Source: an uncultured Clostridia bacterium
GTDB taxonomy: Bacteria > Bacillota > Clostridia > Christensenellales > UBA1242
Reading direction: 5' to 3'
DNA length: 64,000 nt
Assembly: GCA_944383915.1 (NCBI GenBank)
Contig: CALWRJ010000010.1
Location: 139,828-203,827, forward strand
Positions 2,553 through 62,983 of the stretch are shown in pieces; the first letter of the stretch is position 1; every line of letters begins with the position of its first letter. The notes below the pieces were generated by a model, which did not search any database, had not been told where the DNA came from, and saw only the letters and a program-made list of their open reading frames with translations. The position numbers and the translations under genes are program-made.

Positions 2553-4577
2553 TTAGTTTAATTGAGAATCCGTAGTCGTTCTAAAATCTAGATAAATCGT
2601 AAAAGGCTCATTTATGTTGTATATTTCGAGTACTATTTTAGTCCCTTCGGTATTAGTCATATAATGAATTGCAGTGCAATAATCATTTCCCAAATTACCA
2701 TTTGTTGAATTAATTTTTATAAATTCGTTTGCTGTTGGTTCTGTTGATGAATTAGTTATACATATGCCATTAATAAAGTAGCCACTATTAGTTTGAATTA
2801 CATAACTATGTACTACCTCGTCTATACTTTCGTTTGTAATAGCGAACTCTACCCCATCATTAATAGAAGTAATACTTATTCCAATATCAAAAACTGCGGT
2901 AAAAGCATAATTACCCAAGTCGGTAATTGTATAAGTAAATGTTGGACTAGTAATTTGCTCTTTAACAATTTGCACACCATTTCGCATTACTGTTACCTGC
3001 CAATATAAAAACACGACATTTTTAGGTATTACCGTAGCAGTTATTTTTGTCCCATAAATTATTTGGCTTGGCTCAACATACTCTAAAGTACCACAATTTT
3101 GATTACAATTTACCATTACATACCATTGCATAATTAAAGTATTTAAACTTCCGCTTTCGTTTGTAGTAAATTTTGAACCATGTACATTTATTGCATTTTC
3201 TAAATTAGTTTGGTCTTTAAAATAATATTGTACATAATGATTCCCGCCACTAAACGCATTTGAACCTATCATATATTCATCTAATGTGATATCGTTATTA
3301 AAATATATAAAAGTTAAATCAGTACAATTTTGGAATGCAGATTCCCCTATGCTTTCAACATTTTCAGGTATAGTTATAGAGGTTAGATTTGAGCACAGAT
3401 AAAATGCAAAATCATTTATACTAGTAACACTATCAGGTAATTCCACCGAAGTTAAACTGAAACAATTAGAAAAAGTATAATTCCCTATGCTAGTAACGCC
3501 ATTAGGTATTGTCACCGATATTAAACTAACACAACGATAAAAGGCGCTATTACCAATGCTCTGAACGCTTTCTGGTATATCTATTGAAATTAAACTGCCA
3601 CAATATTCAAAAGCGTTGTTTCCTATACTAACAACGCCATCAGACATTGTTATAAAATTTAAATCAGTACATCTATTAAAAGCGCTGTTTCCAATACTTT
3701 CAACACTTGTTGGTAAGTCTACCGAAATTAAACTAGTACAACCATAAAAAGCATAGTCTTTTATGCTAGTTATACCATTCGGCACTGTTAAATTTGTTAC
3801 TAAATTATTATTTAAATATAAATCTGCTCCATATGATAATGGATTGGAAGTAAAATAAGCAAAATCAATATTACACCATGCCGTTAGTTCGGTTATATAT
3901 ACCGATGCTAAATTGTTACAACCATTAAAAGCATTATAGTTTATGCTTGTAACGCCATTTCCTACTGATACCGAATTTAAATTAACACAACTACCAAATG
4001 AATTACTTCCAATACTTGTAACACTATTTGGTATTGTTAATGATGTTAAACTAGTGCATCCCAAAAAAGAATAATTTCTTATACTTACAATAGAATTTGG
4101 TATAACTAAATCAGTTACAATGACATCATTTAAATATAAATCTGCACCATTGATTAAGGGATTTGCTTCGCCAAAGAAACCAATATTACACCACGACACT
4201 AAATCATTTATGTATACTGAATTTAAACCACTACAACCACTAAATGCCGAAGCCCCAATACTAGTAATGCTTTCAGGTATTTCTAACGACTCTATACTTG
4301 TGCAATCAGCAAATGCATTACTTCCTATACTTGTAACAGTATATTCGTTAATTGAACTTGGTATTATTAATGTTGTTGCACTCCCTGTATAACCTGTAAT
4401 TGTTGCTTGATTACCTGATACAGTATATTCAAAATCATTATAAGTATCCGCAATTGTAGAAGGTTTTGTTTTTGATAAAAAAATTCCTAAAATTATGCCA
4501 ATGGCGGTTAATACCATAATAACTATAAAAATAATTGTATAAAGTTTGTATTTAGTAAATAGTTCTTTAACTGCCAT
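2553..4577 (-). CDS. BspA-type leucine-rich-repeat surface protein with N-terminal membrane anchor
   Basis: 674 aa. N-terminal TM helix, then more than 15 tandem ~23-aa repeats of the form IP.SVTSIG..AF..C..L.S. Very AT-rich codon usage. Confidence 0.8.
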   Translation of the reverse strand: MAVKELFTKYKLYTIIFIVIMVLTAIGIILGIFLSKTKPSTIADTYNDFEYTVSGNQATITGYTGSATTLIIPSSINEYTVTSIGSNAFADCTSIESLEIPESITSIGASAFSGCSGLNSVYINDLVSWCNIGFFGEANPLINGADLYLNDVIVTDLVIPNSIVSIRNYSFLGCTSLTSLTIPNSVTSIGSNSFGSCVNLNSVSVGNGVTSINYNAFNGCNNLASVYITELTAWCNIDFAYFTSNPLSYGADLYLNNNLVTNLTVPNGITSIKDYAFYGCTSLISVDLPTSVESIGNSAFNRCTDLNFITMSDGVVSIGNNAFEYCGSLISIDIPESVQSIGNSAFYRCVSLISVTIPNGVTSIGNYTFSNCFSLTSVELPDSVTSINDFAFYLCSNLTSITIPENVESIGESAFQNCTDLTFIYFNNDITLDEYMIGSNAFSGGNHYVQYYFKDQTNLENAINVHGSKFTTNESGSLNTLIMQWYVMVNCNQNCGTLEYVEPSQIIYGTKITATVIPKNVVFLYWQVTVMRNGVQIVKEQITSPTFTYTITDLGNYAFTAVFDIGISITSINDGVEFAITNESIDEVVHSYVIQTNSGYFINGICITNSSTEPTANEFIKINSTNGNLGNDYCTAIHYMTNTEGTKIVLEIYNINEPFTIYLDFRTTTDSQLN

Positions 4578-21524: not shown

Positions 21525-22511
21525 TTAGTCAATAAAATCCAAATCATCAAATTTAATAGTATTAAAAATATGTTCTCTATGATATTTCATATATTTCTCA
21601 GTTCCTTGCTGTAATCTATAAGCCTTTAATTCAATAAGATTTAATCGAGATTTGTTAAGATTTGATAAAAATGGAGAAATAAGTAATCTTCCATCTTTAT
21701 CAAAAGTTATAAACCCTAAATCAAATAAAGTATGATATGTAGGTGTCAGTACAATGCCATTTTTTACATCATATTTTTCATCTTCGTCACAAACACAATA
21801 AGGTTTTACATGACATGCTACCAATAACCTATCATCTGAAACATTCGTAATTAAGCAAGCCGGCATTTTTTCAAGCAAAGACAACCTATATTGCGTTTGC
21901 TTTTTCCTATATCTTTCTTTTACTATTTTTTCATTTTCGGAAGATTCATTATTAAGCGTAGCTAATTCATTTTGCTCATCTAAAGCTTCTCTTTTTGCAG
22001 GATCTATATAGAAGATAGGTTTCATATAAATATATCGTTTATGTGATTCATTATCTTCCAATTTTACAAATGTGATTACAGTCATCCTTGGCAAACAAAT
22101 ATTTCTCAAATGTGCATAATTTTGTCTATTTTCTTTATTAGGATATAATACCAAATAATATCTATGGCCACTATCATATGTTTTCTTAAAATATACTTTG
22201 ATTTTATCAAAACTAATGCTATTTGTTTCTTTTACTTTTTCTATATATAAATTGGAAATATTATGCTGATATTCTCTAGAAGGATTTTCATATTCTTCTT
22301 TAGCATCTTGCAAATAATTAACTAAATCTTCTTTTAACATAAAAAAGCATTCAATATTATCCAATTCAAAAAATTCATCTAAATCTTTTTCATTATTTCC
22401 TGCATATAGTCTCGCTTCTCCCACGCCTGTTGTGCCAGCTATTTTTAAGGATCTATCAGCTGCTGAATCTACATAATTTATATCTATTGCATCTAATCTT
22501 TTAAAACTCAT
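21525..22511 (-). CDS. HNH-family restriction endonuclease (putative R subunit)
   Basis: 328 aa. C-terminal ..CLITNVSDDRLLVACHVKPY..DVKNGIVLTPTYHTLFDLGFITFD matches the HNH_2-type nuclease pattern. Lies 9 nt downstream of the methyltransferase genes with an AGGAGG RBS. Confidence 0.7.
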   Translation of the reverse strand: MSFKRLDAIDINYVDSAADRSLKIAGTTGVGEARLYAGNNEKDLDEFFELDNIECFFMLKEDLVNYLQDAKEEYENPSREYQHNISNLYIEKVKETNSISFDKIKVYFKKTYDSGHRYYLVLYPNKENRQNYAHLRNICLPRMTVITFVKLEDNESHKRYIYMKPIFYIDPAKREALDEQNELATLNNESSENEKIVKERYRKKQTQYRLSLLEKMPACLITNVSDDRLLVACHVKPYCVCDEDEKYDVKNGIVLTPTYHTLFDLGFITFDKDGRLLISPFLSNLNKSRLNLIELKAYRLQQGTEKYMKYHREHIFNTIKFDDLDFID

Positions 22512-22520
22512 ATTTACCTC

Positions 22521-23660
22521 CTAATCCAAAGCTCCAGTTTTTAAAATTTCCCTTATTATAGCCATCATAACATCAACAACTATTGAATTACCAGCTTGCT
22601 TAAATATTTGTGTAGATGATACAACTATCTTAAAATTATCAGGGTACCCCATCAATCTTAATGCTTCTCTATCAGTAAGCGATCTAATTACTTTTTCTTT
22701 TCCATTATCACTAACTGTTATATAATTATCAACACCAGCTCTATGGTGTTGGGTCATTGTTCTTAATAAAGTTCTAGCAATCTTTAAATCAATTTCTATA
22801 GATGTTTTAAATGATTTAGTCCCCTGTTTTAAAACATAATCTCTAACTTTTGGTGTTAGATAAAATTTTTTATCAGGAATCCCTTTTGATTTTTTGACAA
22901 TCAATTCTCCGCTTTTCTTATCATAAGAAAAATCGCCATATCGACAATTATCTTCCAAGAAATCTTGCATTGAATATTTTAAATTTTCAACACCAATTTT
23001 TGGCGGATATTCAAACGCCTTTGCTTGTATATCATTTCTAATACCAATTACAAACAATCGTCTTCGATTTTGGGGTATTCCATAATCTGCTGCATTTAAA
23101 ATTTGAGGCTCGCTTATATGATAATGTAAAACATTTTTAAAAATGTCTCTCATTTTTCCCCATGTCCTACCTTTGTCGTGTGTGATCAATCCCCGCACAT
23201 TCTCATATATGAAAACCTTAGGTTGAACTTCATCTAATATTCTAGCATATTCATAAAACAATGTACCTCTTGCATCATTCAAACCACCTTTATAACCAAC
23301 AGTTGAGAAGGATTGACATGGACTCCCTCCAACTAAAAGGTCTATTTGTCCTCGGTAATCTCTTCCATCCAAAAACCTTACATCCAAATGAAAATCATCT
23401 ACACTTATATTGTAATTAGCTAAATAACTTTGTTTTACATAATTTTGTTTTTTACTACGTGAATAAAGTTTATCTACATATTTTTTCTTTTCTAATTTAT
23501 CAGTCATAGAAAATATTATTTTTTTTTCTTTTTCAACATCAAGATCTATATCAATATCTCCATTATCACAAGCAAAAATTATTTTATGTTCTAAATTTAA
23601 TCTTTTTAATGCTTGCTCAATCGCACCTATACCACTAAATAAAGTCCCTAATCGTATCAT
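22521..23660 (-). CDS. DNA (cytosine-5)-methyltransferase 1
   Basis: Motifs LFSGIGA (I), GGSPCQSFS (IV), ENV (VI), QNRRR (VIII), GNS (X). Confidence 0.9.
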   Translation of the reverse strand: MIRLGTLFSGIGAIEQALKRLNLEHKIIFACDNGDIDIDLDVEKEKKIIFSMTDKLEKKKYVDKLYSRSKKQNYVKQSYLANYNISVDDFHLDVRFLDGRDYRGQIDLLVGGSPCQSFSTVGYKGGLNDARGTLFYEYARILDEVQPKVFIYENVRGLITHDKGRTWGKMRDIFKNVLHYHISEPQILNAADYGIPQNRRRLFVIGIRNDIQAKAFEYPPKIGVENLKYSMQDFLEDNCRYGDFSYDKKSGELIVKKSKGIPDKKFYLTPKVRDYVLKQGTKSFKTSIEIDLKIARTLLRTMTQHHRAGVDNYITVSDNGKEKVIRSLTDREALRLMGYPDNFKIVVSSTQIFKQAGNSIVVDVMMAIIREILKTGALD

Positions 23661-24763
23661 TTTAAAACTCCAGTCTTTATAATTTCTTTTACAATCTTCT
23701 CTAATACATTTATAACTATAGAATTCCCAGCTTGACGATACATCATCGTATCATTTACAACAATCTTAAAGCTATCAGGAAAGCCCATTAGTCGCAAACA
23801 CTCTCTAGGTGTAAATTTCCTTATAACCCCTATTTCGTTATTGAAAGTACCAATATACGCTTTTTTTAAAATTTTCTGATTTGTTATTTTTTTTAACGGC
23901 TCAAAAATAAAATCTCCATTCCAATTAAACTGCTGATTCGCTTTTTGACAGCGCATTATATTACAATTTACTTGAGCTCTGCTAGAATGAGTAGTTACAA
24001 ATTCAAAACCTTTTTTACCTAAATAATATTTAGGATCAGTAGATTCATCCAAAAAATCAGAAACTTTTAATTTTAATTTTATGGGAGCAGGAAATTGAAA
24101 TAAATTGTTATCAATATCTCTTCGTATACCTATAATATAAATTCTCGGTCTATTTTGAGGCATCCCAAAATCCATTGAATTTAACACAGGAGATTCTTTT
24201 CCATTCCTATCTTTATTTATATATATGTTATAATTTAATTCACTAAAAGCATTTTTTACTGTTTCCCAAGTCCTTCCATTATCATGAGTTAACATCCCCT
24301 TTACATTTTCAAAAATAAAACATTTAGGTTGACTTTCTTTAATAATGCGAGCGTATTCATAAAATAAAGTTCCTCTAGTATCTGCAAATCCTCCTCTTTT
24401 TCCATTAACTGAAAAAGATTGACATGGGCTACCTCCAACAAGAAGATCTACTTGCCCTTTATAAAATTCGCCATCAACAAATCTGATATCTTGATAAAAA
24501 TCTTTGTCATTTATTTGATAATTTGCCTTATAAGATTTTTCCATGAAATTCTCTTTCTTTGTTTTTGCATATAATGATTTTACATAATTTTCACGTTCAA
24601 CTATATCTTTAACATTATTTATATAATCAATTTCTTTTTCGTTAATTGATATATGCCTTTCACCATTATCGCAAGCAAATATTATTTTATGATTAAGATT
24701 TAATTTAAATAAGGTTTGTTCAATAGCTCCAATCCCGCTAAACAAAGTCCCTAATCGTATCAT
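23657..24763 (-). CDS. DNA (cytosine-5)-methyltransferase 2
   Basis: Same motif set (LFSGIGA, GGSPCQSFS, ENV, QNRPR, GNS). ATGA stop/start overlap with MTase 1. Both N-termini begin MIRLGTLFSGIGAIEQ. Confidence 0.9.
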   Translation of the reverse strand: MIRLGTLFSGIGAIEQTLFKLNLNHKIIFACDNGERHISINEKEIDYINNVKDIVERENYVKSLYAKTKKENFMEKSYKANYQINDKDFYQDIRFVDGEFYKGQVDLLVGGSPCQSFSVNGKRGGFADTRGTLFYEYARIIKESQPKCFIFENVKGMLTHDNGRTWETVKNAFSELNYNIYINKDRNGKESPVLNSMDFGMPQNRPRIYIIGIRRDIDNNLFQFPAPIKLKLKVSDFLDESTDPKYYLGKKGFEFVTTHSSRAQVNCNIMRCQKANQQFNWNGDFIFEPLKKITNQKILKKAYIGTFNNEIGVIRKFTPRECLRLMGFPDSFKIVVNDTMMYRQAGNSIVINVLEKIVKEIIKTGVLK

Positions 24764-30408: not shown

Positions 30409-30843
30409 TTACGCTTCGCTTTACGCAACTCCGTTATGCGCTTCGCCATTCGGCTTCGCTTTATTTTGAATTTTGAATTACGGGCGCTTGTGCGCGAAGC
30501 TTTTTTATAGATAAATAAACTTCCTTTTTAATTTCATATTAACAAAATAATGAAATGCAATATTAATTACAGACTTCCGCGTATGCTTGCATACGCTAAT
30601 GAGCCAGCGGGGCAACAAAAGTATTAGTGGTCTAAAAGTGAATTGTACTCGCCGTAGGCGTATTGCTTGGACGGTCACCGTCCCGCTCCGCGCGTAGCGG
30701 AAAAAAATGCGAAGCATTTTGCTTTCTGTGCAAAAAGATTTTGCGTTAGCAAAAATTTTTGCCAAAAACCTAAACAAAACAAACAATATAAAGAAGCAAA
30801 AACAAACCAAAAAAATTAAAGAAAAAATAACAGTGATTTGCTG
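30409..30843. repeat. mosaic intergenic repeat element (locus 3, inverted relative to the others)
   Basis: TTTGAATT units, core copy 2 in reverse orientation, then the palindrome pair GCAAAAAGATTTTGC / GCAAAAATTTTTGC and an A-rich tract running into the 3' end of rsmI. Confidence 0.85.
30515..30700 (-). repeat. structured core of mosaic element, copy 2 (reverse orientation, ~45-nt longer)
   Basis: The reverse complement carries CCGC-TACGC-GCGG .. GCGTATGC-AA-GCATACGC GGAAGTC .. ATTTCAT..ATGAAAT .. AAAAAGGAAGTTTAT. The extra segment matches 54300-54350. Confidence 0.8.
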
Positions 30844-48904: not shown

Positions 48905-49260
48905 TGTTGTTTAAATTTTTGGCAAAAATTTTTGCTAGCGCAAAATCTTTTTGCACTGAAAACAAAATTTTTTTAGTTATTTCTGCCTTAATTCCTAATT
49001 CCTAATTCCTAATTAACTTATTTTTTCCGCTACGCGCGGTGCGGTGCGAAGGCGCACTCCCAATAGCGCATAAATGCGCGGAAGCCCGTAAGTATTATTG
49101 CATTTCTTTATTTTTTGTGTAATTAGAAATAAGTTAGTATCAAAAATATATATTTTTATAAATTATTCCTTAATTCCTAATTACTAATTAAGCGTAGCCG
49201 AAAGGCGTAGCGTACATCCTTAATTCCTAATTACTAATTCCTAATTCCTAATTTATTCAC
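48905..49260. repeat. mosaic intergenic repeat element (locus 9), last units extend into the CDS 3' end
   Basis: Palindromes GCAAAAATTTTTGC (48922-48935) and GCAAAATCTTTTTGC (48940-48954), CCTAATT x3, core copy 4, CCTAATT/ACTAATT arrays. Array units encode the final ..LGIRN and the TAG stop of CDS 49234-50385. Confidence 0.85.
49027..49140 (+). repeat. structured core of mosaic element, copy 4
   Basis: CCGC-TACGC-GCGG, GTGCG-AAGG-CGCAC, CCCAATAGC, GCGCAT-AA-ATGCGC, GGAAGCCCGTAAGTATT, AATTAGAAATAAG. Confidence 0.8.
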
Positions 49261-51174: not shown

Positions 51175-53985
51175 TTAATTTGTGTTTTCAGCATCATCAT
51201 TATTTATTATTTCGGTGTTTTCTGCGGTTTCGTTTTCGTCATTTGCGTTTTCGTTTGAAGTATTTTCTGCGTTGTTTTCTGCGTTGTTTTCTGCATTTGC
51301 GTTTGAAGTGTTTTCCGCGTTATTTTCGCTGTTTGGGTTGTCTTGCTCGTTTGCTGGTTCATCTGGGTCGGCGGTAACGGTTGCGATGCTTGCGATTGTG
51401 TTACCGTTGCGGAGTTTCATCATACGAACGCCTATTGAGATACGGCTAACCTTACGGACATCGTTAGATTTTAGGCGAATAGTCATACCGTTGTTGGTAA
51501 TTAGGATAATATCGTCATTTGGTTCAATCTGGCGAAGTCCTACAAGGTCGCCTGTTTTTTCGTTAAATTCGCCAGCGCGGACACCCATTCCACCGCGAGA
51601 TTGGAGTCTATAATCTGTAATATCGGCGCGTTTTCCGTAACCGTTTGCTGTGATGGTAAGGACTTCGTTATTCGGTTTAATAATGCACATATCGACAAGT
51701 TTTGCGCCGTTGTCTAGGTGCATAGCCTTAACACCACGCGCGGTACGCCCGAGCGGACGGAGTTTTGTTTCGCTGAAACGGATACATTTGCCGGCGCTTG
51801 AAGCGACTAAAATATCGTCATCGCCCTTGCTGAGTTCGACTTTTACGAGTTCGTCCCCTTCGTCTAGCGAGATTGCTCGTTTGCCGACTTTCATAATATT
51901 GAAAAATTCGGTTACGGGCGTTTTCTTGATAAGTCCGTTTTTGGTTACCATAACGAGATAGCCCTTGCCGTTTGAAGTGTCCACGAAGTTTTCCTCGTTC
52001 TCGTTTTCGCTTTCGTCCTCAACGGTTTCGTCTGGCTCTAACGAGTTAAACGCGCTTTGCTCGGCAATGTCTGTTGTATCATCATAAACTGCGCCGTAAT
52101 TTGCCTTAGGGGTGAGCATTTGGTATGGAAGTCTAATCATCGCGTTTACGCTCTCGCCCTGGTTTAATTGAAGCAAATTGATAATTGCGCGCCCTTTGCT
52201 TGTTTTACTGCCTTCGGGGATTTCGTAGTTTTTAATTGAGTAAACTTTCCCTAGGTTTGTAAAGAACAAAATTGAGTCGTGGGTATTTGCGACAAACATA
52301 CGGTTTATGAAGTCGTTGTCCTTTGACTTGTGTGTAGTTATGCCGACTCCCCCGCGGTTTTGCGTGTGGTACTCGCTCAACGCCATTCGTTTAATGTAGC
52401 CTTGGGCGGTCATACTAACGACCATATCCTCTTTTGCGATTAAGTCCTCGACATCGAAGTTGCCGATATCGTGGCTAATTTCGGTACGGCGCGGAGTGTT
52501 GTATTTTTCCTTAATTTCGGTAAGTTCTTTTGCGATAATTGCAAGCACTTTGTTTGGGTTTTCCAAAATTGACTCGCACTCTTTGATGAAAGCGCGCAAG
52601 TCGTTTAACTCTTGTTGGAGTTTCTCGACTTCTAATGCGGTTAGACGAGCAAGGCGCATATCGAGAATGGCGTTTGCTTGTTTTTCGGAGAGTTCAAACT
52701 TGGTGCACAAATTAGTTAGCGCGTCCGTGCGTTCTTTACTGCTCTTAATAATATGGATAACTTCGTCAATGTTGGCGAGCGCGATAACTAGCCCTTCGAC
52801 AATGTGTGCGCGTTCTTTTGCGCGCTCGAGGTCGTACTTTGTCCTACGAACGATAACATCTTTTTGGTGTTCGAGGTAGTAGTACAACATTTCTTTTAGG
52901 TTTAAAACGCGGGGTTCGCCGTCCACGAGTGCTAGGAAAATAATTCCCATACTTGTTTGGAGTTGCGAATGTTTATATAGTAGGTTTAGGACGACTTGCG
53001 GGTTGGCATCGCGTTTTAGGTCGACAACGATTCGCATACCGTGGCGGTCGGACTCCTCTTTGATATCGGCGATTCCGTCAATTTTCTTATCTTTTACGAG
53101 GTTTGCCATTTGGATAATAAGTTGTGCTTTATTTACCTGGTAAGGTATTTCGGTAATGACGATTTTTGCCTTATTACCATCGTCCTCGATTTCGGCGCGA
53201 GCGCGTGTAACGACTTTCCCGTGCCCTGTTTTATAAGCCTGTCTAACGCCCATTCGTCCCATAATAATTGCGCCTGTAGGGAAGTCTGGGGCTTTTATGT
53301 AAGTCATTAGTTCGTCAATTTCGATATCGGGGTTATTAATTAGCGCGATAACGCCATCGATGACTTCGCCTAAATTGTGTGGTGGGATTGCTGTAGCCAT
53401 ACCTACGGCGATACCGTCAGCGCCGTTTACGAGCAAGTTCGGGTAGCGGGCGGGCAAGACAACGGGTTGTTGCAAGGTGTCATCGAAGTTTGGCGCGAAG
53501 TCGACTGAGTCTTTGTCGATGTCGCGGAGCATTTCGGCGGCGATTTTGCTAAGGCGCGCCTCGGTATAACGCTGTGCTGCGGCTGGGTCGCCGTCAATAC
53601 TACCGAAGTTTCCCTGTCCGTCAACGAGTGGGGCGCGCATTGTAAAGGGTTGTGCGAGGCGGACGAGAGCGTCATAGACTGCGGAGTCGCCGTGTGGGTG
53701 ATATTTACCTAGGACATCGCCGACAATACGCGCGCATTTACGGTATGGTTTATCGTTAAATAGGTTTAGTTCGCTCATACTGTACAAAATTCTGCGGTGG
53801 ACGGGCTTTAAGCCATCGCGGACATCGGGTATTGCACGCGTTACATTTACCGCCATTGCGTAGCCGATGAAACTCTCTTTCATTTCCTGGACGAGTTGGC
53901 GCTTTATAACGCGCGTGTTGTCCTGCTTGTCGTCAACAATGGGGTTCTCTGGTGTAATCGGTGTTGAATTTTCTTGATTTTCCAT
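51175..53985 (-). CDS. gyrA: DNA gyrase subunit A with acidic N/E/A-rich C-terminal tail
   Basis: 936 aa. ..[24 protein letters not shown].., active-site ..RYTE... The tail is ..[23 protein letters not shown].. (51178-51375). Confidence 0.97.
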
Positions 53986-54615
53986 AATTTTTTCCTTAAT
54001 TTTATTTATTTTTTGTTAATTTTATTTTTGTAGTTTTTTGTGTTTTTTGGGTTTGTTAGATTTTTTGTTTAGTTTAGTTTTGTTACTTTTTTGGCTTTAA
54101 AATTTTCACTTCGTGAAAACATTAAAGCACAGAAAACAAAATTTTTTCGCTTCGCTCAAATTAGCAATTAGCAGGTAGCAATTAGCAGTTGTTGTGCGCT
54201 AGCGCGCAAGCAATATAAATATTTTTAAAATACTACTGCCTTAATTCCTAATTTCTAATTTCTAATTCCTAATTATTTACTTTTTTCCGCTACGCGCGGT
54301 GCGGGACGGTAGCCCTTCCAGGCAATACGCCTACGGCGAGTACAATACTCTTTGAATATACTCAGCCTTAACTGCTAATTGCTAATTGCTCATTGCTAAT
54401 TCTTGCGAAGCAAGTAAGACTGCTAATTGCTACCTGCTAATTGCTAATTCGCGTGTAACGCGCAAGCCCCCGCGGACTCATTAGCAAACAAAGTTCGCGA
54501 AATCTATACCCAGCCTTAACTGCTAATTTCTAATTGCTAATTGCTAATTTGAGCGTAGCGAATAAAATTGCTAATTGCTAATTGCTAATTGTTTAATTTT
54601 GAATTACATTCAAAA
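53986..54615. repeat. mosaic intergenic repeat element (locus 11) separating gyrB and gyrA by 630 bp
   Basis: T-rich leader, TTTTCAC-TTC-GTGAAAA, AATTAGC..AGGTAGC signature (54159-54188) inverted again at 54420-54449, CCTAATT-type array, core copy 5, several GCTAATT arrays, and the palindrome GTTTAATTTTGAAT-TAC-ATTCAAAATTAAAC at the gyrB stop. Confidence 0.85.
54287..54350 (+). repeat. structured core of mosaic element, copy 5 (truncated)
   Basis: CCGC-TACGC-GCGG TGCGGGACGGTAGCCCTTCCAGGCAATACGCCTACGGCGAGTACAAT matches the extra segment of copy 2. A fragment CCCCCGCGGACTCATTAGC recurs at about 54467. Confidence 0.65.
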
Positions 54616-57155
<2,540 letters not shown>

Positions 57156-58370
57156 TCAATTTTTTGCAAAGTATTCCGCGCATTTCTTTTCGGCTTTTAG
57201 GGCAAATTTTTGAGCGCTTAAAGAGTCGCTATCTAGCATATCAAAAATATGTTCTTTTACGAGTTTGCCCGAGACAACTTGTTCGCGGTATGCACGGTAT
57301 TTTTCGATTTGTTCTTGTGAAAGCGAGTCGAGTTTGTTAGCGAACACGGAGTCGCAGAAGTCGACTAATTCTTTATTATACCGTGCAATCGCGCGAAGGC
57401 GGAAGTTATGTCGGCTGGCGTACTCGTCATCGTCACGCGCTATTTCGCCGTTGCCTTTTAGCGAGTGCCACCACGAATTTAGTCGTTTTCGGCGGTCGTC
57501 CGCGCAATCGGGTTTGATATGTGAGATATACAAGTACAGTAGTTTTTTAAACTCGGCGGTTTGCGCCGAAGTCTCGCGTTCGTTTTCGTTAAATACACTC
57601 GCGCTCTCGCCCATTACGAACTCGCGCCGAAGGATATTATTATTTAGCACATTCCACATACCGCAGAAAGTGGACACAACATCGGCGAAAGTTTCGAAGG
57701 GGGCGTTTCCGTATGATTCTGGCACGATTTTTTCTAAAATATCGTTCTCCCAGTTTGAGACGATGCCCTCCTCCATAAAGAGCGCGTACGGGTCGGTGGC
57801 GTATTTATTTTGAGAATCAACGCAGAAACTATAAAAGTGGTACGAGACATTGCCGAGGCGCAGAATTTCGGTATCGCGCACGAAACGGGGCCCTGAGTAC
57901 GAGTATATATAATTCGCCTTATTGAAGGGTTCGGTATGTCCGCCTGACATTGCGTGCAATAATTCGTGGACGAACGCGCCGGCGGTATTTTTGGAGAATG
58001 CCAGGTTATCGTCAAAGTCGGGCGAATGTATGTTTTCGTTGAGTTCGATTTTTTCGGAGATATTATCCTTAAAGAAGGGGGCGAAGTCGGGCGTTGTTTT
58101 TTCGCCTGTGCGCACGGTGTTTTCGTCCTGGTTGGTTATTTTAATGCTATTATAGCGTTTACCTTTATAAACGGTGGACTCGGTCATTCCAAAAATGCGG
58201 ACATCGGTTTCCCCAAAATGAAGTTTGGTATTTAGTATTCGCGCGACAATCTCGTAGCGCATTTCGGGGACGAGTGTCGAGACTTCGCGGTAGAACGCTG
58301 GAATCATTGTCGCGTACGGTCCAAATCTCTTATTTAGCAAATCTGCGTTTTCGATTTCTTTTTCTTTCAT
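57156..58370 (-). CDS. hypothetical HExxH (zincin-like) protein, paralog 1
   Basis: 404 aa. FVHELLHAM, downstream MEEGIVSNWENDILE, N-terminal KRFGPY. No signal peptide. Paralog of CDS 59029-60669. Confidence 0.5.
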   Translation of the reverse strand: MKEKEIENADLLNKRFGPYATMIPAFYREVSTLVPEMRYEIVARILNTKLHFGETDVRIFGMTESTVYKGKRYNSIKITNQDENTVRTGEKTTPDFAPFFKDNISEKIELNENIHSPDFDDNLAFSKNTAGAFVHELLHAMSGGHTEPFNKANYIYSYSGPRFVRDTEILRLGNVSYHFYSFCVDSQNKYATDPYALFMEEGIVSNWENDILEKIVPESYGNAPFETFADVVSTFCGMWNVLNNNILRREFVMGESASVFNENERETSAQTAEFKKLLYLYISHIKPDCADDRRKRLNSWWHSLKGNGEIARDDDEYASRHNFRLRAIARYNKELVDFCDSVFANKLDSLSQEQIEKYRAYREQVVSGKLVKEHIFDMLDSDSLSAQKFALKAEKKCAEYFAKN

Positions 58371-59050
58371 TTTTCCACTTTTAATATTATTTGTTTGATT
58401 GTTTAGTTTGTTTTGATTTTTTGATTTTATAGTTTTTTATTTATTTAGGCAAAAATTTTTGCTAACGCAAAATCTTTTTGCACTCAAAACAAAATTTTTT
58501 CGCTTCACTCAAATTAGCAATTAGCAGGTAGCAATTAGCAATTAACGCTGGGTTAAAAATTAATTTGGATAATTTCAGCCGTAATTTAAAATTCAAAATT
58601 CCTAATTCAAAATTCGAGCGCCAGCGAGTAAAATTCCTAATTCCTAATTATTTTACCCGCTACGCGCGGTGCGGTGCGAAGGCGCACTCCCAATAGCGCA
58701 TAGATGCGCGTTGTCCGTAAATATAATTGCTTTTCTTTTTTATGTTTACACTAAATTATGCTAATATCTAATTTATAAAAAGGAAGTTTATCTATTTATA
58801 ATTGCTTGCGCGCGTTCGCTATGCTTAAATTAGGAATTGTGAATTAGGAATTAGTAATTAAGGAGTTATATTAATATTATTTAATGCTTGCGCGCTAGCG
58901 CACAACAACTGCTAATTGCTAATTGCTAATTGCTAATTCTTGCGAAGCAAGTAAGACTGCTAATTGCTAATTGCTAATTGCTAATTCTTGCGAAGCAAGT
59001 AAGACTGCTAATTGCTAATTGCTAATTGCTAATTCTTGCGAAGCAAGTAG
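58371..59050. repeat. mosaic intergenic repeat element (locus 13), ends in a 48-bp x3 tandem repeat
   Basis: T-rich leader, palindrome pair (58448-58480), AATTAGC signature, core copy 7, AATTAGG units, GCGCGCTAGCGCAC, then 3 units of ACTGCTAATT(GCTAATT)3CTTGCGAAGCAAGTAAG (58907-59050) overlapping the 3' end of CDS 59029. My count may be off by 1 nt here. Confidence 0.8.
58656..58790 (+). repeat. structured core of mosaic element, copy 7
   Basis: CCGC-TACGC-GCGG, GTGCG-AAGG-CGCAC, CCCAATAGC, GCGCAT-AG-ATGCGC, GTTGTCCGTAAATATA, ..AAAAAGGAAGTTTAT. Confidence 0.8.
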
Positions 59051-60669
59051 GCTTGCGCAGTACTTGATTGCGCGGTGCTTGTGCTTGCTTGCGCAGGTGG
59101 CGGGGCGAGTTCGTTTTCCGCGATTGTTTTTTTGTCGTGGACGAACAATATTTTGCCTTCTCTTGCGCGTTCGTTCGTGTAGCGATTAAGTTCGCGCTCG
59201 TACGCCGAAGTCAGCCAACTAACTTTTGCGTAGCCCTTTTCGTTTTTGTCCTCGTCACGAAGCAAGCCTAGTGCAGTTTTTTTTAGCATATTGGGGCTGA
59301 CAAGACTTTTTCTTTTGCCTAAATAATCGAGGCGCTCGCTTTTATTTAGTGATTTAGTCTTGAGCAAATTCTCGAATTTCTCATCGCAAAATTTGATAAT
59401 ATTAACAAGGCTTTTTGCGCTTTCTATATAGTCTAGTTTTTCTAGGTCGACTTTGGCGTTTTGCGGTTCTCCCAAAAGGGTCAGCATAAAATCATTAAAA
59501 AGTTTATCAAACTGCTCCACCTCGCCCGCTGGCGTTTTTTCGCCGACATTCCCTGTCATATGTTGATTCCTCAACTCGCCGTTGCTCACCGCGTTATACA
59601 TACCCGCGATATAAGGCAGTGCGCCATAAGAGAGTGTCGGCACGAGATAAAAACTTTTTAGTTCATCGCAAAAGCCTAGATTTTCGGCGATATCGTTTGC
59701 CCAGTCCTCGACAACACCTTCCTCGCGGTAACGATTCACCATATTGTATACGGGCTGTTTTTTATTCCAAGTTCCGCGGTCGAACGCATCGCGCACGAGT
59801 TCTTGAGACAACTCCACCTTTCCGCCCTGTTTAAAGAACACTGTAATTGAGTTTTCGTTATTTTCTCTAACGCACTCTTTTAGGTCTATCATACAGTGAA
59901 GCATTTCGTGGATGAACGACTCGCGCACGGTGTATTTATTAATCGCGTTATTCACTTCGTTTATTTTTTCGAGGTTGTCTGTTTCGTCAATTTTTTTCAG
60001 GACCTCGCTAGTATTGAGTGCTTTAACGGTGGACAAGTTTCTATCGTTATCGAGCGCAAAGAAGTAATTTAGGTTTTCGGTAATTTCGGGCGGGACTGGG
60101 TCTATCTCGACAATAGACGGAATATTTTCAACAACTAAATTTTGTGGGGAGGCAGTTTCCTTTTTATCCTTTTCCTTTTTATTTAGAAGGGAATCGAAGT
60201 AAGCCTTACAAGACCGGGCGAACTCGTGGACATTGTCCCGTATTGGCTCGCCCCTTTTTCGCGCGTTTTGAGGCGTTTGCGCGGTATTCTGCGCGGGCGG
60301 TGGCGGTGTAGTCTGGTAAGCAGTGGCGTTTGGCGTTTGTGTCAAGTTTTGCGCCATTAAAGAAGGGGTTTTTTCTTGTGAAGGAGTATCTTGTGGTGTT
60401 GGGTCTAGGTTATGCGAGACCTGAACTGTATAATAGTACTTGCTGTCGTTGTAGTTTAACTCGCGTTTTGAGACCCCGCTGACGCCTTCAAGGTCGTTAA
60501 AGCGGAAGTTTACCGAGTTAAATCTATCGAATATTGTTTTGCGTTTCTCGGGGGTGCTGTCGACTAGTTGTTTATACAGTGCTGGCGCGAACATTCCAAA
60601 CGGTCCAAACCGTCTCCGCATATTCTCGCTATCAAGAAAAAATTCCCTTTCGCTTTCGTTAAAGTCCAT
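59029..60669 (-). CDS. hypothetical HExxH (zincin-like) protein, paralog 2, with P/Q/T-rich insert
   Basis: 546 aa. FIHEMLHCM, REEGVVEDWANDIAE, N-terminal RRFGPF. The last ~15 codons and the stop lie inside the repeat array. Confidence 0.5.
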   Translation of the reverse strand: MDFNESEREFFLDSENMRRRFGPFGMFAPALYKQLVDSTPEKRKTIFDRFNSVNFRFNDLEGVSGVSKRELNYNDSKYYYTVQVSHNLDPTPQDTPSQEKTPSLMAQNLTQTPNATAYQTTPPPPAQNTAQTPQNARKRGEPIRDNVHEFARSCKAYFDSLLNKKEKDKKETASPQNLVVENIPSIVEIDPVPPEITENLNYFFALDNDRNLSTVKALNTSEVLKKIDETDNLEKINEVNNAINKYTVRESFIHEMLHCMIDLKECVRENNENSITVFFKQGGKVELSQELVRDAFDRGTWNKKQPVYNMVNRYREEGVVEDWANDIAENLGFCDELKSFYLVPTLSYGALPYIAGMYNAVSNGELRNQHMTGNVGEKTPAGEVEQFDKLFNDFMLTLLGEPQNAKVDLEKLDYIESAKSLVNIIKFCDEKFENLLKTKSLNKSERLDYLGKRKSLVSPNMLKKTALGLLRDEDKNEKGYAKVSWLTSAYERELNRYTNERAREGKILFVHDKKTIAENELAPPPAQASTSTAQSSTAQAYLLRKN

Positions 60670-61037
60670 TGCTATTCCTTTTATTTTGATTTTTTGTTAT
60701 TTTGGTTTTGTTACTTTTTGGTTTGTTTTATTTAGTTGTTCCTTTTAGGCAAAAATTTTTGCTAGCGCAAAATCTTTTTGCACAGAAAACAAAAATTTTA
60801 AAATTTTCAGCCTTAATTCCTAATTCCTAATTCCTAATTATCTTTTTGCACTCCGTGCAGGGCGGGGATAGAGTCCCCGCGGACTCATTAGCGTATGCAA
60901 GCATACGCGGAAGTCCGTAAATATTTTTGCTTTTCTTTATTTGCTATTGCGCAATTAGAAAAGGAAGTTTATTGTTTATAAAATTGCTTGCGCGCGAGCG
61001 CCCCGTAATTCCTAATTCCTAATTCAAAATTCGAGCG
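60670..61037. repeat. mosaic intergenic repeat element (locus 14), one complete unit filling the whole spacer
   Basis: T-rich leader, GCAAAAATTTTTGC (60749-60762), GCAAAATCTTTTTGC (60767-60781), CAGCCTTAATT, CCTAATT x3, core copy 8, GCGCGCGAGCGCC, CCTAATT/TTGAATT units up to the recF stop. Confidence 0.85.
60847..60972 (+). repeat. structured core of mosaic element, copy 8
   Basis: TGCAC-TCC-GTGCA, GCGGGG-ATAGAGT-CCCCGC, CATTAGC, GCGTATGC-AA-GCATACGC, GGAAGTCCGTAAATATT, AATTAGAAAAGGAAGTTTAT. Confidence 0.8.
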
Positions 61038-62225
61038 CTACGCGCGAATGTTCATCTCCTTCACCACTCCGTCCTCCACCTTAAAGAGTTTATCGGGCAC
61101 TGCGGGGTAGTCCCATTCGGTGCAAGTTATCACGGTATTAAAGTTTTTGCAATACTTCATTAGGCGGTGGCGTCTATTCTCGTCAAGTTCAGACAAGACA
61201 TCGTCCAAAAATAAGACAGGCTTTTCAAAGAAAAATTTTTTGTACATAAACATTTCGGCAATTTTAAGTGCTAGCGCGGCGGTGCGCTGTTGTCCTAGAC
61301 TTCCTTCGGTGCGGAGTGGTATCCAGCGGTATTTTTCCGTTCTCAAATCGCCCCCAGGGACAGTTTGCGTTATGTAGCCGAGTTTGATTTCGAAGTCATC
61401 TAGATGCGCGCCCACATTCGTTGTACCTGTCGTGATGTCCCTTAAATAACTTGCGCGCATTTTTTCGGTGTAGACTTTGTTGAATGTCGAGGCGTGGATA
61501 TCGTCTAGCCTATCAAAAAATGTCTTGTAAGTGATGCGCAGGGTTTCTTTGTCGTCAGTAAGCAGTCGCATTGTTGCCGCGGCGAAGTCGTTTACCCAGC
61601 GGAGCATTTCTTTTCGGCGAAGCATAACGCGGATACTATCTCTGCCTATCAGCAAGTCCCACGGAATCAAAGTTGAGTCATAGCCACGCGGGTTGAGTTT
61701 GATTGAACGCAAGAGTGCGTTTCGCTGTTTGATTGAATTTTGCAAGTCGTTTAAGAGCCTCAAATACCACGAACAAGTTTGGCAGTTAATCATATCCATA
61801 TAGCGCCTGCGGTAAACCGGTCCACCGCGCACGATGTCGATTTCGTCAGGGCTAAAATAGACAGACGGAAAGTTGCCAACGATATCGCTCACCTTTGTGC
61901 TTGTTTGCCCGTCTATTTGGACAATTTTGCCTTTGTTAGAAAAAACACTCATTCCTAGCATATGCTCGCCATCGCGTTTAGAAAAAGTAATGCTAATCTC
62001 GTTATTTTTCTTGCCTGTTTGTATCGTTTCGGTGTCCTTACGCGTCCTAGGACTGCGCCCTATTGAACACATTCGCATAGCCTCTAAAATGTTCGTCTTG
62101 CCCGCACCGTTCGCGCCACAAATAACATTTAGCCCTTGCGCAAACTCGATTGTCTGGTCCTTTAAGTTGCGAAAATTTTTTACCGTCAACTTATTAATTT
62201 TCATTTTCTCGTTAAAATCTAACAT
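61038..62225 (-). CDS. recF: DNA replication and repair protein RecF
   Basis: Walker A GANGAGKTN, ..LSLGQQR-like signature EGSLGQQRTAALALK, Walker B LFLDDV. The start may be the internal MKINKL. Confidence 0.9.
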   Translation of the reverse strand: MLDFNEKMKINKLTVKNFRNLKDQTIEFAQGLNVICGANGAGKTNILEAMRMCSIGRSPRTRKDTETIQTGKKNNEISITFSKRDGEHMLGMSVFSNKGKIVQIDGQTSTKVSDIVGNFPSVYFSPDEIDIVRGGPVYRRRYMDMINCQTCSWYLRLLNDLQNSIKQRNALLRSIKLNPRGYDSTLIPWDLLIGRDSIRVMLRRKEMLRWVNDFAAATMRLLTDDKETLRITYKTFFDRLDDIHASTFNKVYTEKMRASYLRDITTGTTNVGAHLDDFEIKLGYITQTVPGGDLRTEKYRWIPLRTEGSLGQQRTAALALKIAEMFMYKKFFFEKPVLFLDDVLSELDENRRHRLMKYCKNFNTVITCTEWDYPAVPDKLFKVEDGVVKEMNIRA

Positions 62226-62519: not shown

Positions 62520-62983
62520 ATAATTTGAACAAAGTTCAAATTTTACGCTACGCTTAAATTTAAAATTTTGAATTTTGAATTTTGAATTAAGGAAGGTATA
62601 TTAATTTTATACCCAGCATTAATTGCTAATTGCTACCTGCTAATTGCTAATTCTCGCAAGGCGAGTAAGATTGCTAATTGCTAATTCGCGTTTACGCGTT
62701 TATGTATCCGAAAAAGGCAAAAATACACCCTTTTCGGTTGTGATAGAAAAGAAACCTTTCAAATTAGTAATTAGTAATTAGAAATTAGGAATTAAGGCAG
62801 AAATATCTAATTATTTTTTTAGGAAATACCTTCCTTAACTGCTAATTGCTAATTGCTAATTGCTAATTCTCGCAAGGCGAGTAAGATTGCTAATTGCTAC
62901 CTGCTAATTGCTAATTCTCGCAAGGCGAGTAAGATTGCTAACTGCTAATTGCTAATTTGATTAATTTTAAACAGTGTTTAAAA
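62520..62983. repeat. mosaic intergenic repeat element (locus 15)
   Basis: AATTTGAAC-AA-GTTCAAATT, TTTGAATT x3, AAGGAAGGTATATTAATTTTATACCCAGC, GCTAATT-GCTACCT signature x2, CTCGC-AAG-GCGAG TAAGATT x3, AATTAGT/AATTAGA/AATTAGG array, and the palindrome TTGATTAATTTTAAAC-AG-TGTTTAAAATTAATCAA at the vWA stop. Confidence 0.85.

Follow-up and report, generated by a model that had tools for sequence, protein, structure and literature searches.

A recF-linked family of HExxH proteins with a putative zincin-like active site in uncultured gut Clostridia

What are two related HExxH proteins doing between recF and gyrB, in the slot that in Bacillus-type Firmicutes is usually taken by the small gene for RemB/YaaB (DUF370)? 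The question is raised by a stretch of 64,000 nucleotides (nt) from an uncultured Clostridia bacterium (GenBank assembly GCA_944383915.1, contig CALWRJ010000010.1, positions 139,828 to 203,827 of the forward strand), which was analysed as a whole and is called the window below; positions are counted from its first letter. In it, 4511 nt lie between the start of gyrB and the stop of recF, and they hold two open reading frames (ORFs) of 404 and 546 amino acids (aa), here named A404 and B546. An earlier note, written from the sequence of this DNA, had pointed to both ORFs, which do lie at exactly its coordinates and on the minus strand, and took them for paralogs that had been inserted between the two core genes, each bracketed by complete mosaic elements. 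We find that A404 and B546 belong to a real, very rare and previously undescribed family, restricted to a single clade of gut Clostridia that are known from Christensenella-like metagenome-assembled genomes (MAGs) and are uncultured. It is well supported that this lineage-restricted family is vertically inherited, cytoplasmic and zincin-like, is encoded in the recF operon and carries a conserved putative metal-binding and catalytic site, with some dead paralogs among its members. The genes at the locus are the following:

57156-58370, minus strand: A404, ORF of 404 aa, of the gyrB-proximal paralog class (family hidden Markov model, E=1.5e-125)
59029-60669, minus strand: B546, ORF of 546 aa, of a second, deeply diverged paralog class, the 'GEWRNQ' class (family hidden Markov model, E=2.5e-111)
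61038-62225, minus strand: recF (TIGR00611 score 275 bits, cutoff 172), whose place upstream of the family is conserved
54616-56526, minus strand: gyrB, the downstream neighbour in most, not all, relatives
51175-53985: gyrA, downstream of gyrB

That the two proteins are related is seen in BLASTP (E=7e-10 over the C-terminal halves, 1e-5 over the N-termini), and translation of both ORFs verified the motifs from which their kinship had been read: RFGP, at residue 15 in A404 and residue 20 in B546, HE[LM]LH, and a distal EEG[IV]V..W.NDI.E, which starts at residue 200 in A404 and 316 in B546, 65 and 62 residues past the HExxH. The larger paralog also has the P/Q/T-rich insert that had been noticed in it. 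Within the two genes, these elements lie as follows:

57954-57968, minus strand: HELLH of A404 (residues 135-139), with the predicted zinc ligands H135 and H139 and the predicted catalytic base E136
57765-57773, minus strand: EEG of A404 (residues 200-202), which may supply the third zinc ligand from the long helix that comes next
59896-59910, minus strand: HEMLH of B546 (residues 254-258), from the translation
59716-59724, minus strand: EEG of B546 (residues 316-318), from the translation
60250-60408, minus strand: P/Q/T-rich low-complexity insert of B546, within the variable loop that joins the N-terminal sheet to the HExxH helix

Conservation was counted in an alignment of 32 family sequences, with per-residue tallies over 31 members. 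The earlier note had made its case depend on the HExxH motif being kept in orthologs, and the motif is intact in 27 of the 32 representatives. H135 and H139 (A404 numbering) are kept in 29 of the 31 members and E136 in 27, and in the distal motif E200 is kept in 30 and E201 in 28. The most conserved positions across the whole protein are G173, E200, N240, V204, H135, H139, G254, E201 and E136. The exceptions to HExxH are P0022 (HQLLH), P0032 (HGLTH), P0018 (YQVMLN), P0027 (YIHMLR) and P0017, a chimeric gene call. P0018 and P0027, which have no HExxH, also lack E200 and/or E201 (VRGG, IEGG), and this joint loss of HExxH and the EE pair argues for one functional site. A gluzincin-like arrangement of HExxH and a distal glutamate, as proposed before, is a reasonable reading of a pattern that is conserved across the family, and a spacing of 62-65 residues lies within the range of gluzincins such as M48. 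Neither A404 nor B546 has a signal peptide or a transmembrane segment, again as previously observed: the maximum of the Kyte-Doolittle 19-mer stays below 1.0 in the two of them and exceeds 1.53 in none of the 32 members. In the chimeric P0017, the N-terminus of adenylosuccinate synthetase is fused to the C-terminal half of the family; an adenylosuccinate synthetase match in the searches belongs to this chimera, which is probably an assembly or gene-calling artefact.

How far does the family reach, and does it stay with recF? Word-indexed searches of 5.8 billion proteins with A404 and with B546 returned self matches only, and a search with the family profile gained only P0003 and P0004. The scan for relatives of recF used GTDB contigs, with one genome per species; recF is 64-66% identical in three Clostridia MAGs (RGIG4549 from roe-deer rectum, BRZ_PQ bin18 and an uncultured 'Christensenella sp.'), and in these three, homologs of A404 and B546 stand directly after recF and all before gyrB. 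Between recF and gyrB, L004 has two copies, L006 has five and BRZ_PQ has at least five. Scanning with a pattern drawn from the family alignment brought up seven loci, which belong to six of 185,579 species genomes. L010 has three copies, and L013 has one, between gyrB and a recF that is 42% identical; the other loci have two to five, likewise between recF and gyrB, with the exception of L011. An exhaustive HMMER search of 1.84 billion representatives gave 31 clusters at E<=1e-3. No relatives turned up in phage and plasmid collections (tblastn) or in IMG/VR and JGI metagenome contigs (pattern scans), tblastn found no third copy in the window, and a literature search for a recF-linked HExxH protein or for recF/remB/gyrB brought up nothing relevant.

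In related Clostridia MAGs the neighbourhood is thus one to five tandem copies abutting recF, and the upstream gene at the related loci is a true RecF in all of them (TIGR00611). The downstream side is less constant. P0005 stands in the order X-X-gyrB, with X the family gene, whereas P0028 and P0031 stand in the order recF-X-polA, and in the loci L017 and L018 polA takes the position of gyrB; P0029 has recF before it and its next gene is cut by the contig end, and P0032 follows recF and is itself followed by the contig end. Since polA replaces gyrB in this divergent subclade, the constant neighbour of the family is recF and not gyrB. Of nine related loci, eight have only 0-17 nt between recF and X, the exception being L013 with 77 nt, and in several a GGAGG-type ribosome-binding site lies just 5' of the recF stop. 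Short junctions and ribosome-binding sites together indicate an operon with translational coupling.

A neighbour-joining tree resolves deep paralog classes that are common to several species. A404 clusters with the gyrB-proximal copies of L006, BRZ_PQ bin18 and L014. The class of B546, which is marked by G[ED]W[RK]xQ where others have NQLRRE, takes in the single copy of L013, copy 3 of L010, P0016, P0019, P0021, P0022 and P0030. Because these classes are shared between species, the arrays are old duplications that were differentially retained or lost, and not recent amplifications. The family is ancestral to the clade at the recF position and is inherited vertically; it is not a recent insertion. 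The claim that the two genes had been inserted is not supported. Relatives without any mosaic repeats carry one to five copies in the same slot between recF and gyrB, translationally coupled to recF. Codon usage and base composition, given as GC content and GC content at third codon positions (GC3), are 0.459 and 0.536 for A404 and 0.449 and 0.499 for B546, equal to the values of recF, gyrB and gyrA, and there are no phage, plasmid or viral homologs in the collections named above.

The AlphaFold2 model of A404 that was built on the 32-sequence alignment has a predicted local distance difference score (pLDDT) of 82.7 and a predicted template modelling score (pTM) of 0.83; it replaced a run on a 4-sequence alignment, whose pLDDT of 36.5 made it unusable. 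The model begins with a helical hairpin (residues 9-46) and a three-stranded sheet at 48-79 (strands 48-53, 61-68 and 71-79). A disordered loop at 94-119, the gap or low-confidence region with which the insert of B546 aligns, leads to helix 121-140, which ends in HELLH with a pLDDT of about 95. Four strands (144-192) and helix 194-215 with EEG follow, and the C-terminal part is made of helices with the GMWN and LRREF motifs and then a helical bundle. In this predicted structure, the order of sheet, HExxH helix and Glu helix would be that expected of a gluzincin; the strands that precede the HExxH helix were read at the level of secondary structure only. Foldseek on the model, a check that the earlier note had suggested, gave no significant neighbour in PDB or in BFVD. 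The best E in BFVD was 0.089, and among the weak matches there M34, IrrE-like and SprT-like models are over-represented. Among BFVD entries, the unnamed 213-aa viral protein A0A5Q2W9L6 aligned over 121 columns at a Foldseek probability of 0.99, E=0.23 and a TM-score of 0.27.

The statement that the proteins belong to no family that can be named also held when Pfam, NCBIfam, PHROGs, PADLOC, PDB sequences and Foldseek were searched, all without a significant match. No Pfam family was reached: SprT-like (E=0.0014), M78 (E=0.0046) and M91 (E=0.016) all stayed below cutoff, and these sub-threshold matches come from two short recF-proximal members and cover only a strand and the HExxH helix. SprT-like scored 18.9 bits against a cutoff of 25.6, in two of 32 members (E=0.0014 and 0.02), and Peptidase_M78 17.2 bits against 22, in one of 32. 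NCBIfam gave nothing significant, the best zincin-type entry having E=0.043, and PHROGs gave nothing significant either. Sequence and profile searches of PDB brought up no peptidase, only chance matches (MarR, PARP4, Hsc70). Hence, the family fits only the generic zincin/gluzincin pattern.

Its likeness is greatest, in outline, to several known groups from which it also departs. With the gluzincins of clan MA(E), such as thermolysin (M4) and Ste24/HtpX (M48), it shares HExxH on a predicted helix and a conserved catalytic glutamate; in the model, strands that may correspond to the beta-sheet of gluzincins come before this helix, and an acidic EE, kept in at least 90% of the members, lies on a later helix as a candidate ligand. 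It differs from them by a four-strand beta insert between the two helices, by an N-terminal helical hairpin with FF..L[RK][RK]FG, a GMWNxxSNNxLRxEF motif and a helical C-terminal domain of 150 residues, by its cytoplasmic location and its place in the recF operon, and there is no significant match in sequence or fold. Metzincins were rejected, since the third histidine of HExxHxxGxxH is not conserved: A404 has HELLHAMSGGH (with H145), B546 has HEMLHCMIDLK and others vary. To SprT-like, SPRTN and Wss1 proteins the family is tied by the weak Pfam matches of two short members, by sub-threshold viral SprT-like Foldseek matches and by gene company that belongs to DNA repair and replication, whereas it has no conserved third histidine, no zinc ribbon and no basic DNA-binding region; membership was rejected because homology is limited to the motif and no downstream histidine is conserved. 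RemB/YaaB shares the slot in the dnaA-gyrA block and the co-orientation with recF and gyrB, whereas the family proteins are 340-550 aa long, carry a metalloprotease motif, occur in one to five copies and have no sequence relationship to it. DUF370 was not matched in any Pfam scan of the family, and RemB/YaaB was rejected for want of that domain.

We favour the following explanation, to which, taken as a whole, we give a probability of roughly 0.55: A404 and B546 are soluble gluzincin-like metallopeptidases, old and vertically inherited paralogs that are co-expressed with RecF, and the repeats around them are unrelated to their presence. In the family, the first copy starts within a few bases of the recF stop, with one to five copies in all before gyrB, or before polA in one subclade. 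H135, H139 and either E200 or E201 would hold a zinc ion, E136 would activate a water molecule, and a peptide substrate might dock on the edge of the sheet. The fast-evolving helical C-terminal domain may pick the target, separate paralog classes may serve separate targets, and the minority of catalytically dead copies may act as binders or partners. We infer that the proteins hydrolyse peptides with the help of zinc and that the helical C-terminal half chooses the target; the sub-threshold matches, which are all to minimal zincins (Pfam: SprT-like, M78, M91; BFVD: M34, IrrE, SprT-like), count in favour. As to the role, the genes stay coupled to recF and are followed by gyrB or polA, which hints weakly at the processing or removal of a protein tied to replication or gap repair. 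A narrower version, which we hold to be unlikely, would have a RecF-coupled protease system of cytoplasmic zincin-fold enzymes, made along with RecF, that clear or process proteins which have become stuck on the DNA where there are gaps or stalled forks (e.g., trapped gyrase or other DNA-protein adducts), as functional analogues of SPRTN, Wss1 and SprT, with target-specialised classes and dead copies as adaptors.

If the proteins are active metallopeptidases, they would form a new peptidase family, with a fold for which no neighbour can be detected in the solved structures, confident as the model is. That they always follow recF at these loci, even where gyrB gives way to polA, would be a first hint of a protease that works with the RecF gap-repair pathway of bacteria, for which we know of no protease partner. 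Practical importance is limited, as only a handful of gut Clostridia, all of them uncultured, have the family.

Several observations weigh against the favoured explanation. There is no significant similarity to any characterised peptidase, and hhalign of the family profile with E. coli SprT (YggI) gave a probability of 2.3%, over 24 columns around HExxH only. The best Foldseek match of the A404 model in PDB had E=1.4, despite the pTM of 0.83. One member, in L011, lies away from recF, beside AcnX genes. In Firmicutes, some genes of the dnaA-gyrA block have no functional tie to recF (yaaA/rlbA and remB in Bacillus subtilis), and adjacency to recF is for this reason weak functional evidence. Orthologs share only about 30% of their residues, against 64% for recF and 89% for gyrB, a divergence faster than expected for a housekeeping repair factor. 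Relaxed selection, or diversifying selection, on the parts outside the catalytic site would be compatible with it. Finally, many members are acidic and have no recognisable DNA-binding module.

The same divergence leads to the rival that we take most seriously, though it is rather unlikely, namely that these are conflict-related proteins (e.g., ones that defend against phages or that neutralise a phage or toxin protein) in arms-race arrays for which the position after recF is merely a tolerated slot. Copy numbers that range from one to at least five between species, orthologs that have drifted so much further than recF and gyrB, catalytically dead copies inside the arrays and a very narrow distribution would all suit it. 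However, the paralog classes are old and common to several species rather than recently duplicated, the location is constant over recF identities from 42% to 66% and translationally coupled, there are no other defence genes nearby, and the family is absent from phages, plasmids and IMG/VR. PHROGs and PADLOC gave no significant match (the best PADLOC E was 0.0034, in one of 32 members, with A404 and B546 unmatched), and a known anti-phage defence protein was rejected as no PADLOC model matched. Quite unlikely, in our estimate, is a non-catalytic accessory or scaffold of RecF, in which HExxH would be a structural metal site or a relic. Four or five of the 32 representatives have lost catalytic residues (HQLLH, HGLTH, YQVMLN, YIHMLR), and the helical non-catalytic domain makes up more than half of each protein; yet the catalytic glutamate is kept in 27 of 31 members, and two histidines and two glutamates are among the most conserved positions, an active-site signature under selection. 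We give even less credence to a DNA-damage-responsive regulatory protease of the ImmA/IrrE type (Peptidase_M78, COG2856), which would cleave a repressor upon RecF- and RecA-dependent signals. In IrrE, the glutamate stands in the next helix, about 25-30 residues past HExxH, whereas here it stands 62-65 residues past it, with a beta-hairpin insert in between. The likeness consists in a minimal cytoplasmic zincin with HExxH and a downstream glutamate ligand, in the linkage to recF, in the Peptidase_M78 hit (E=0.0046), which is the best weak Pfam match of one member, and in the IrrE-like entries among the weak BFVD matches. ImmA/IrrE proteases are indeed tied to DNA-damage responses (PMC6868357, PMC5552922). 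However, that hit is below threshold and found in one of 32 members, the family proteins are two to four times the length of the M78 domain, and no XRE or helix-turn-helix (HTH) repressor gene adjoins any of the loci; membership in the group was rejected on the score and on the missing XRE/HTH gene.

The reading implied by the earlier note, that the two genes are recent cargo put between recF and gyrB by flanking mosaic elements, is in our view highly improbable and is contradicted by synteny and composition. Repeat-rich spacers that share modules do flank both genes, and to this extent the bracketing that had been described is real. However, the repeats do not mark an insertion, neither a transposase nor an integrase lies near the two genes, no mobile-element homolog of them is known from the searches, the same repeats flank gyrA, gyrB and recF and occur in 14 of the 30 spacers of the window, and relatives free of repeats have the family at the same site. 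The spacers around A404 and B546, 368-658 nt long and composed of mixed repeat modules, are these:

60670-61037: spacer between recF and B546, filled with the species-specific mosaic repeats; most relatives have 0-17 nt at the homologous junction
58371-59028: spacer between B546 and A404, with heptamer arrays, a perfect 48-nt tandem in three copies and the 36-nt double hairpin
56527-57155: spacer between A404 and gyrB, with an 82-nt tandem in 2.2 copies, heptamer arrays and a 113-nt module
59029-59049, minus strand: last six codons and stop of B546, which derive from the 48-nt tandem; the TAG lies within AATTAGC and the protein ends in ...AQAYLLRKN

The modules comprise tandem heptamers, (AATTAGC)n, (AATTAGG)n and (AATTTTG)n, and short GC hairpins. 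A GC-rich 113-nt module is 94% identical between 56896-57008, upstream of gyrB, and 60861-60973, upstream of B546, and is also present at about 58660-58800; it has no match in Rfam. The 48-nt repeat at 58908-59049 (Tandem Repeats Finder period 48, 3.0 copies, 100% matches) and the 82-nt repeat at 56590-56770 (2.2 copies, 98% identical) suggest very recent repeat expansion. The same modules also separate gyrA from gyrB and recF from the gene upstream of it. A 20-nt heptamer pattern matches the window 55 times, where 0 matches are expected, and mosaic-repeat spacers extend across 14.4-63 kb (e.g., 54159-54591, 56590-57136, 58512-59049, 60814-61025 and 62564-62957), whereas all related genomes examined are free of them. 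The mosaic repeats are therefore a species-specific, genome-wide intergenic family that inflated the spacers of this operon, and, being spread through the window and absent from relatives, they say nothing on the origin of the two genes. Large repeat-filled spacers are in this genome a species-wide feature and not a mark of horizontally inserted cargo. Metagenome contigs of this organism break at the mosaic repeats.

One module is a 36-nt double hairpin, GGCAAAAATTTTTGCTARCGCAAAATCTTTTTGCAC, with the palindrome GCAAAAATTTTTGC, of which the window holds four exact copies:

30728-30763: first copy
48921-48956: second copy
58448-58483: third copy
60748-60783: fourth copy

Three of the four lie 75-170 nt upstream of minus-strand start codons, and the hairpin might serve the repeat family as a module with promoter, operator or terminator function. 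An operator specific to the A404/B546 family was rejected, since identical copies at 30.7 kb and 48.9 kb stand beside unrelated genes. Promoter and terminator scans of 53.9-63 kb gave no signal above shuffled background, and Rfam matched tRNAs only. More than 119 stretches, from phyla that differ widely, contain the exact (AATTAGC)4 array, among them many of filamentous cyanobacteria (Microseira, Stigonema, Symploca, Kamptonema, Microcoleus, Nostoc), Bacteroidota, Acidobacteriota, Myxococcota and a few gut Clostridia MAGs. Intergenic tandem heptamers recall the short tandemly repeated repetitive (STRR) heptanucleotide sequences of cyanobacteria, and (AATTAGC)4 itself is found in many filamentous species; the repeats described here differ in that they occur in gut Clostridia and are joined with GC hairpins and longer modules.

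With respect to the neighbouring genes, the vWA-domain gene that had been reported upstream of recF is present (vWA/DUF11). The earlier note had also taken the absence of dnaA and dnaN upstream of recF for heavy remodelling of the block. For the window the absence holds, with no dnaA anywhere in the 64 kb; as a local remodelling of dnaN it does not, since in three relatives (L005, L006 and L010) dnaA directly precedes recF without dnaN between them. The absence of dnaN before recF is clade-wide, and the lost adjacency of dnaA and recF is the only local part. The gyrB of the window is 89-94% identical to that of L004, L006, L007, L010 and L014, and 81% to that of L013.

Some further observations concern RecF, GyrA and base composition. 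In RecF of this clade (61038-62225, and L015, L017 and L018) the TIGR00611 match is split in two, implying that something is inserted near residue 283; the RecF of the recF-X-polA subclade has a length of 489-510 aa, extended in comparison with the 358-aa RecF of L013, in which the TIGR00611 match is uninterrupted. GyrA, of 936 aa, carries an acidic insert inside the protein, and its long C-terminal tail is of low complexity and rich in N and E. Close to gyrA and recF, the core genes have a GC of about 0.45-0.49 and a GC3 of about 0.50-0.55, and the genes at 2553-4577 and 21525-24763, with a GC of 0.27-0.30 and a GC3 of 0.16-0.18, are possibly horizontally acquired islands.

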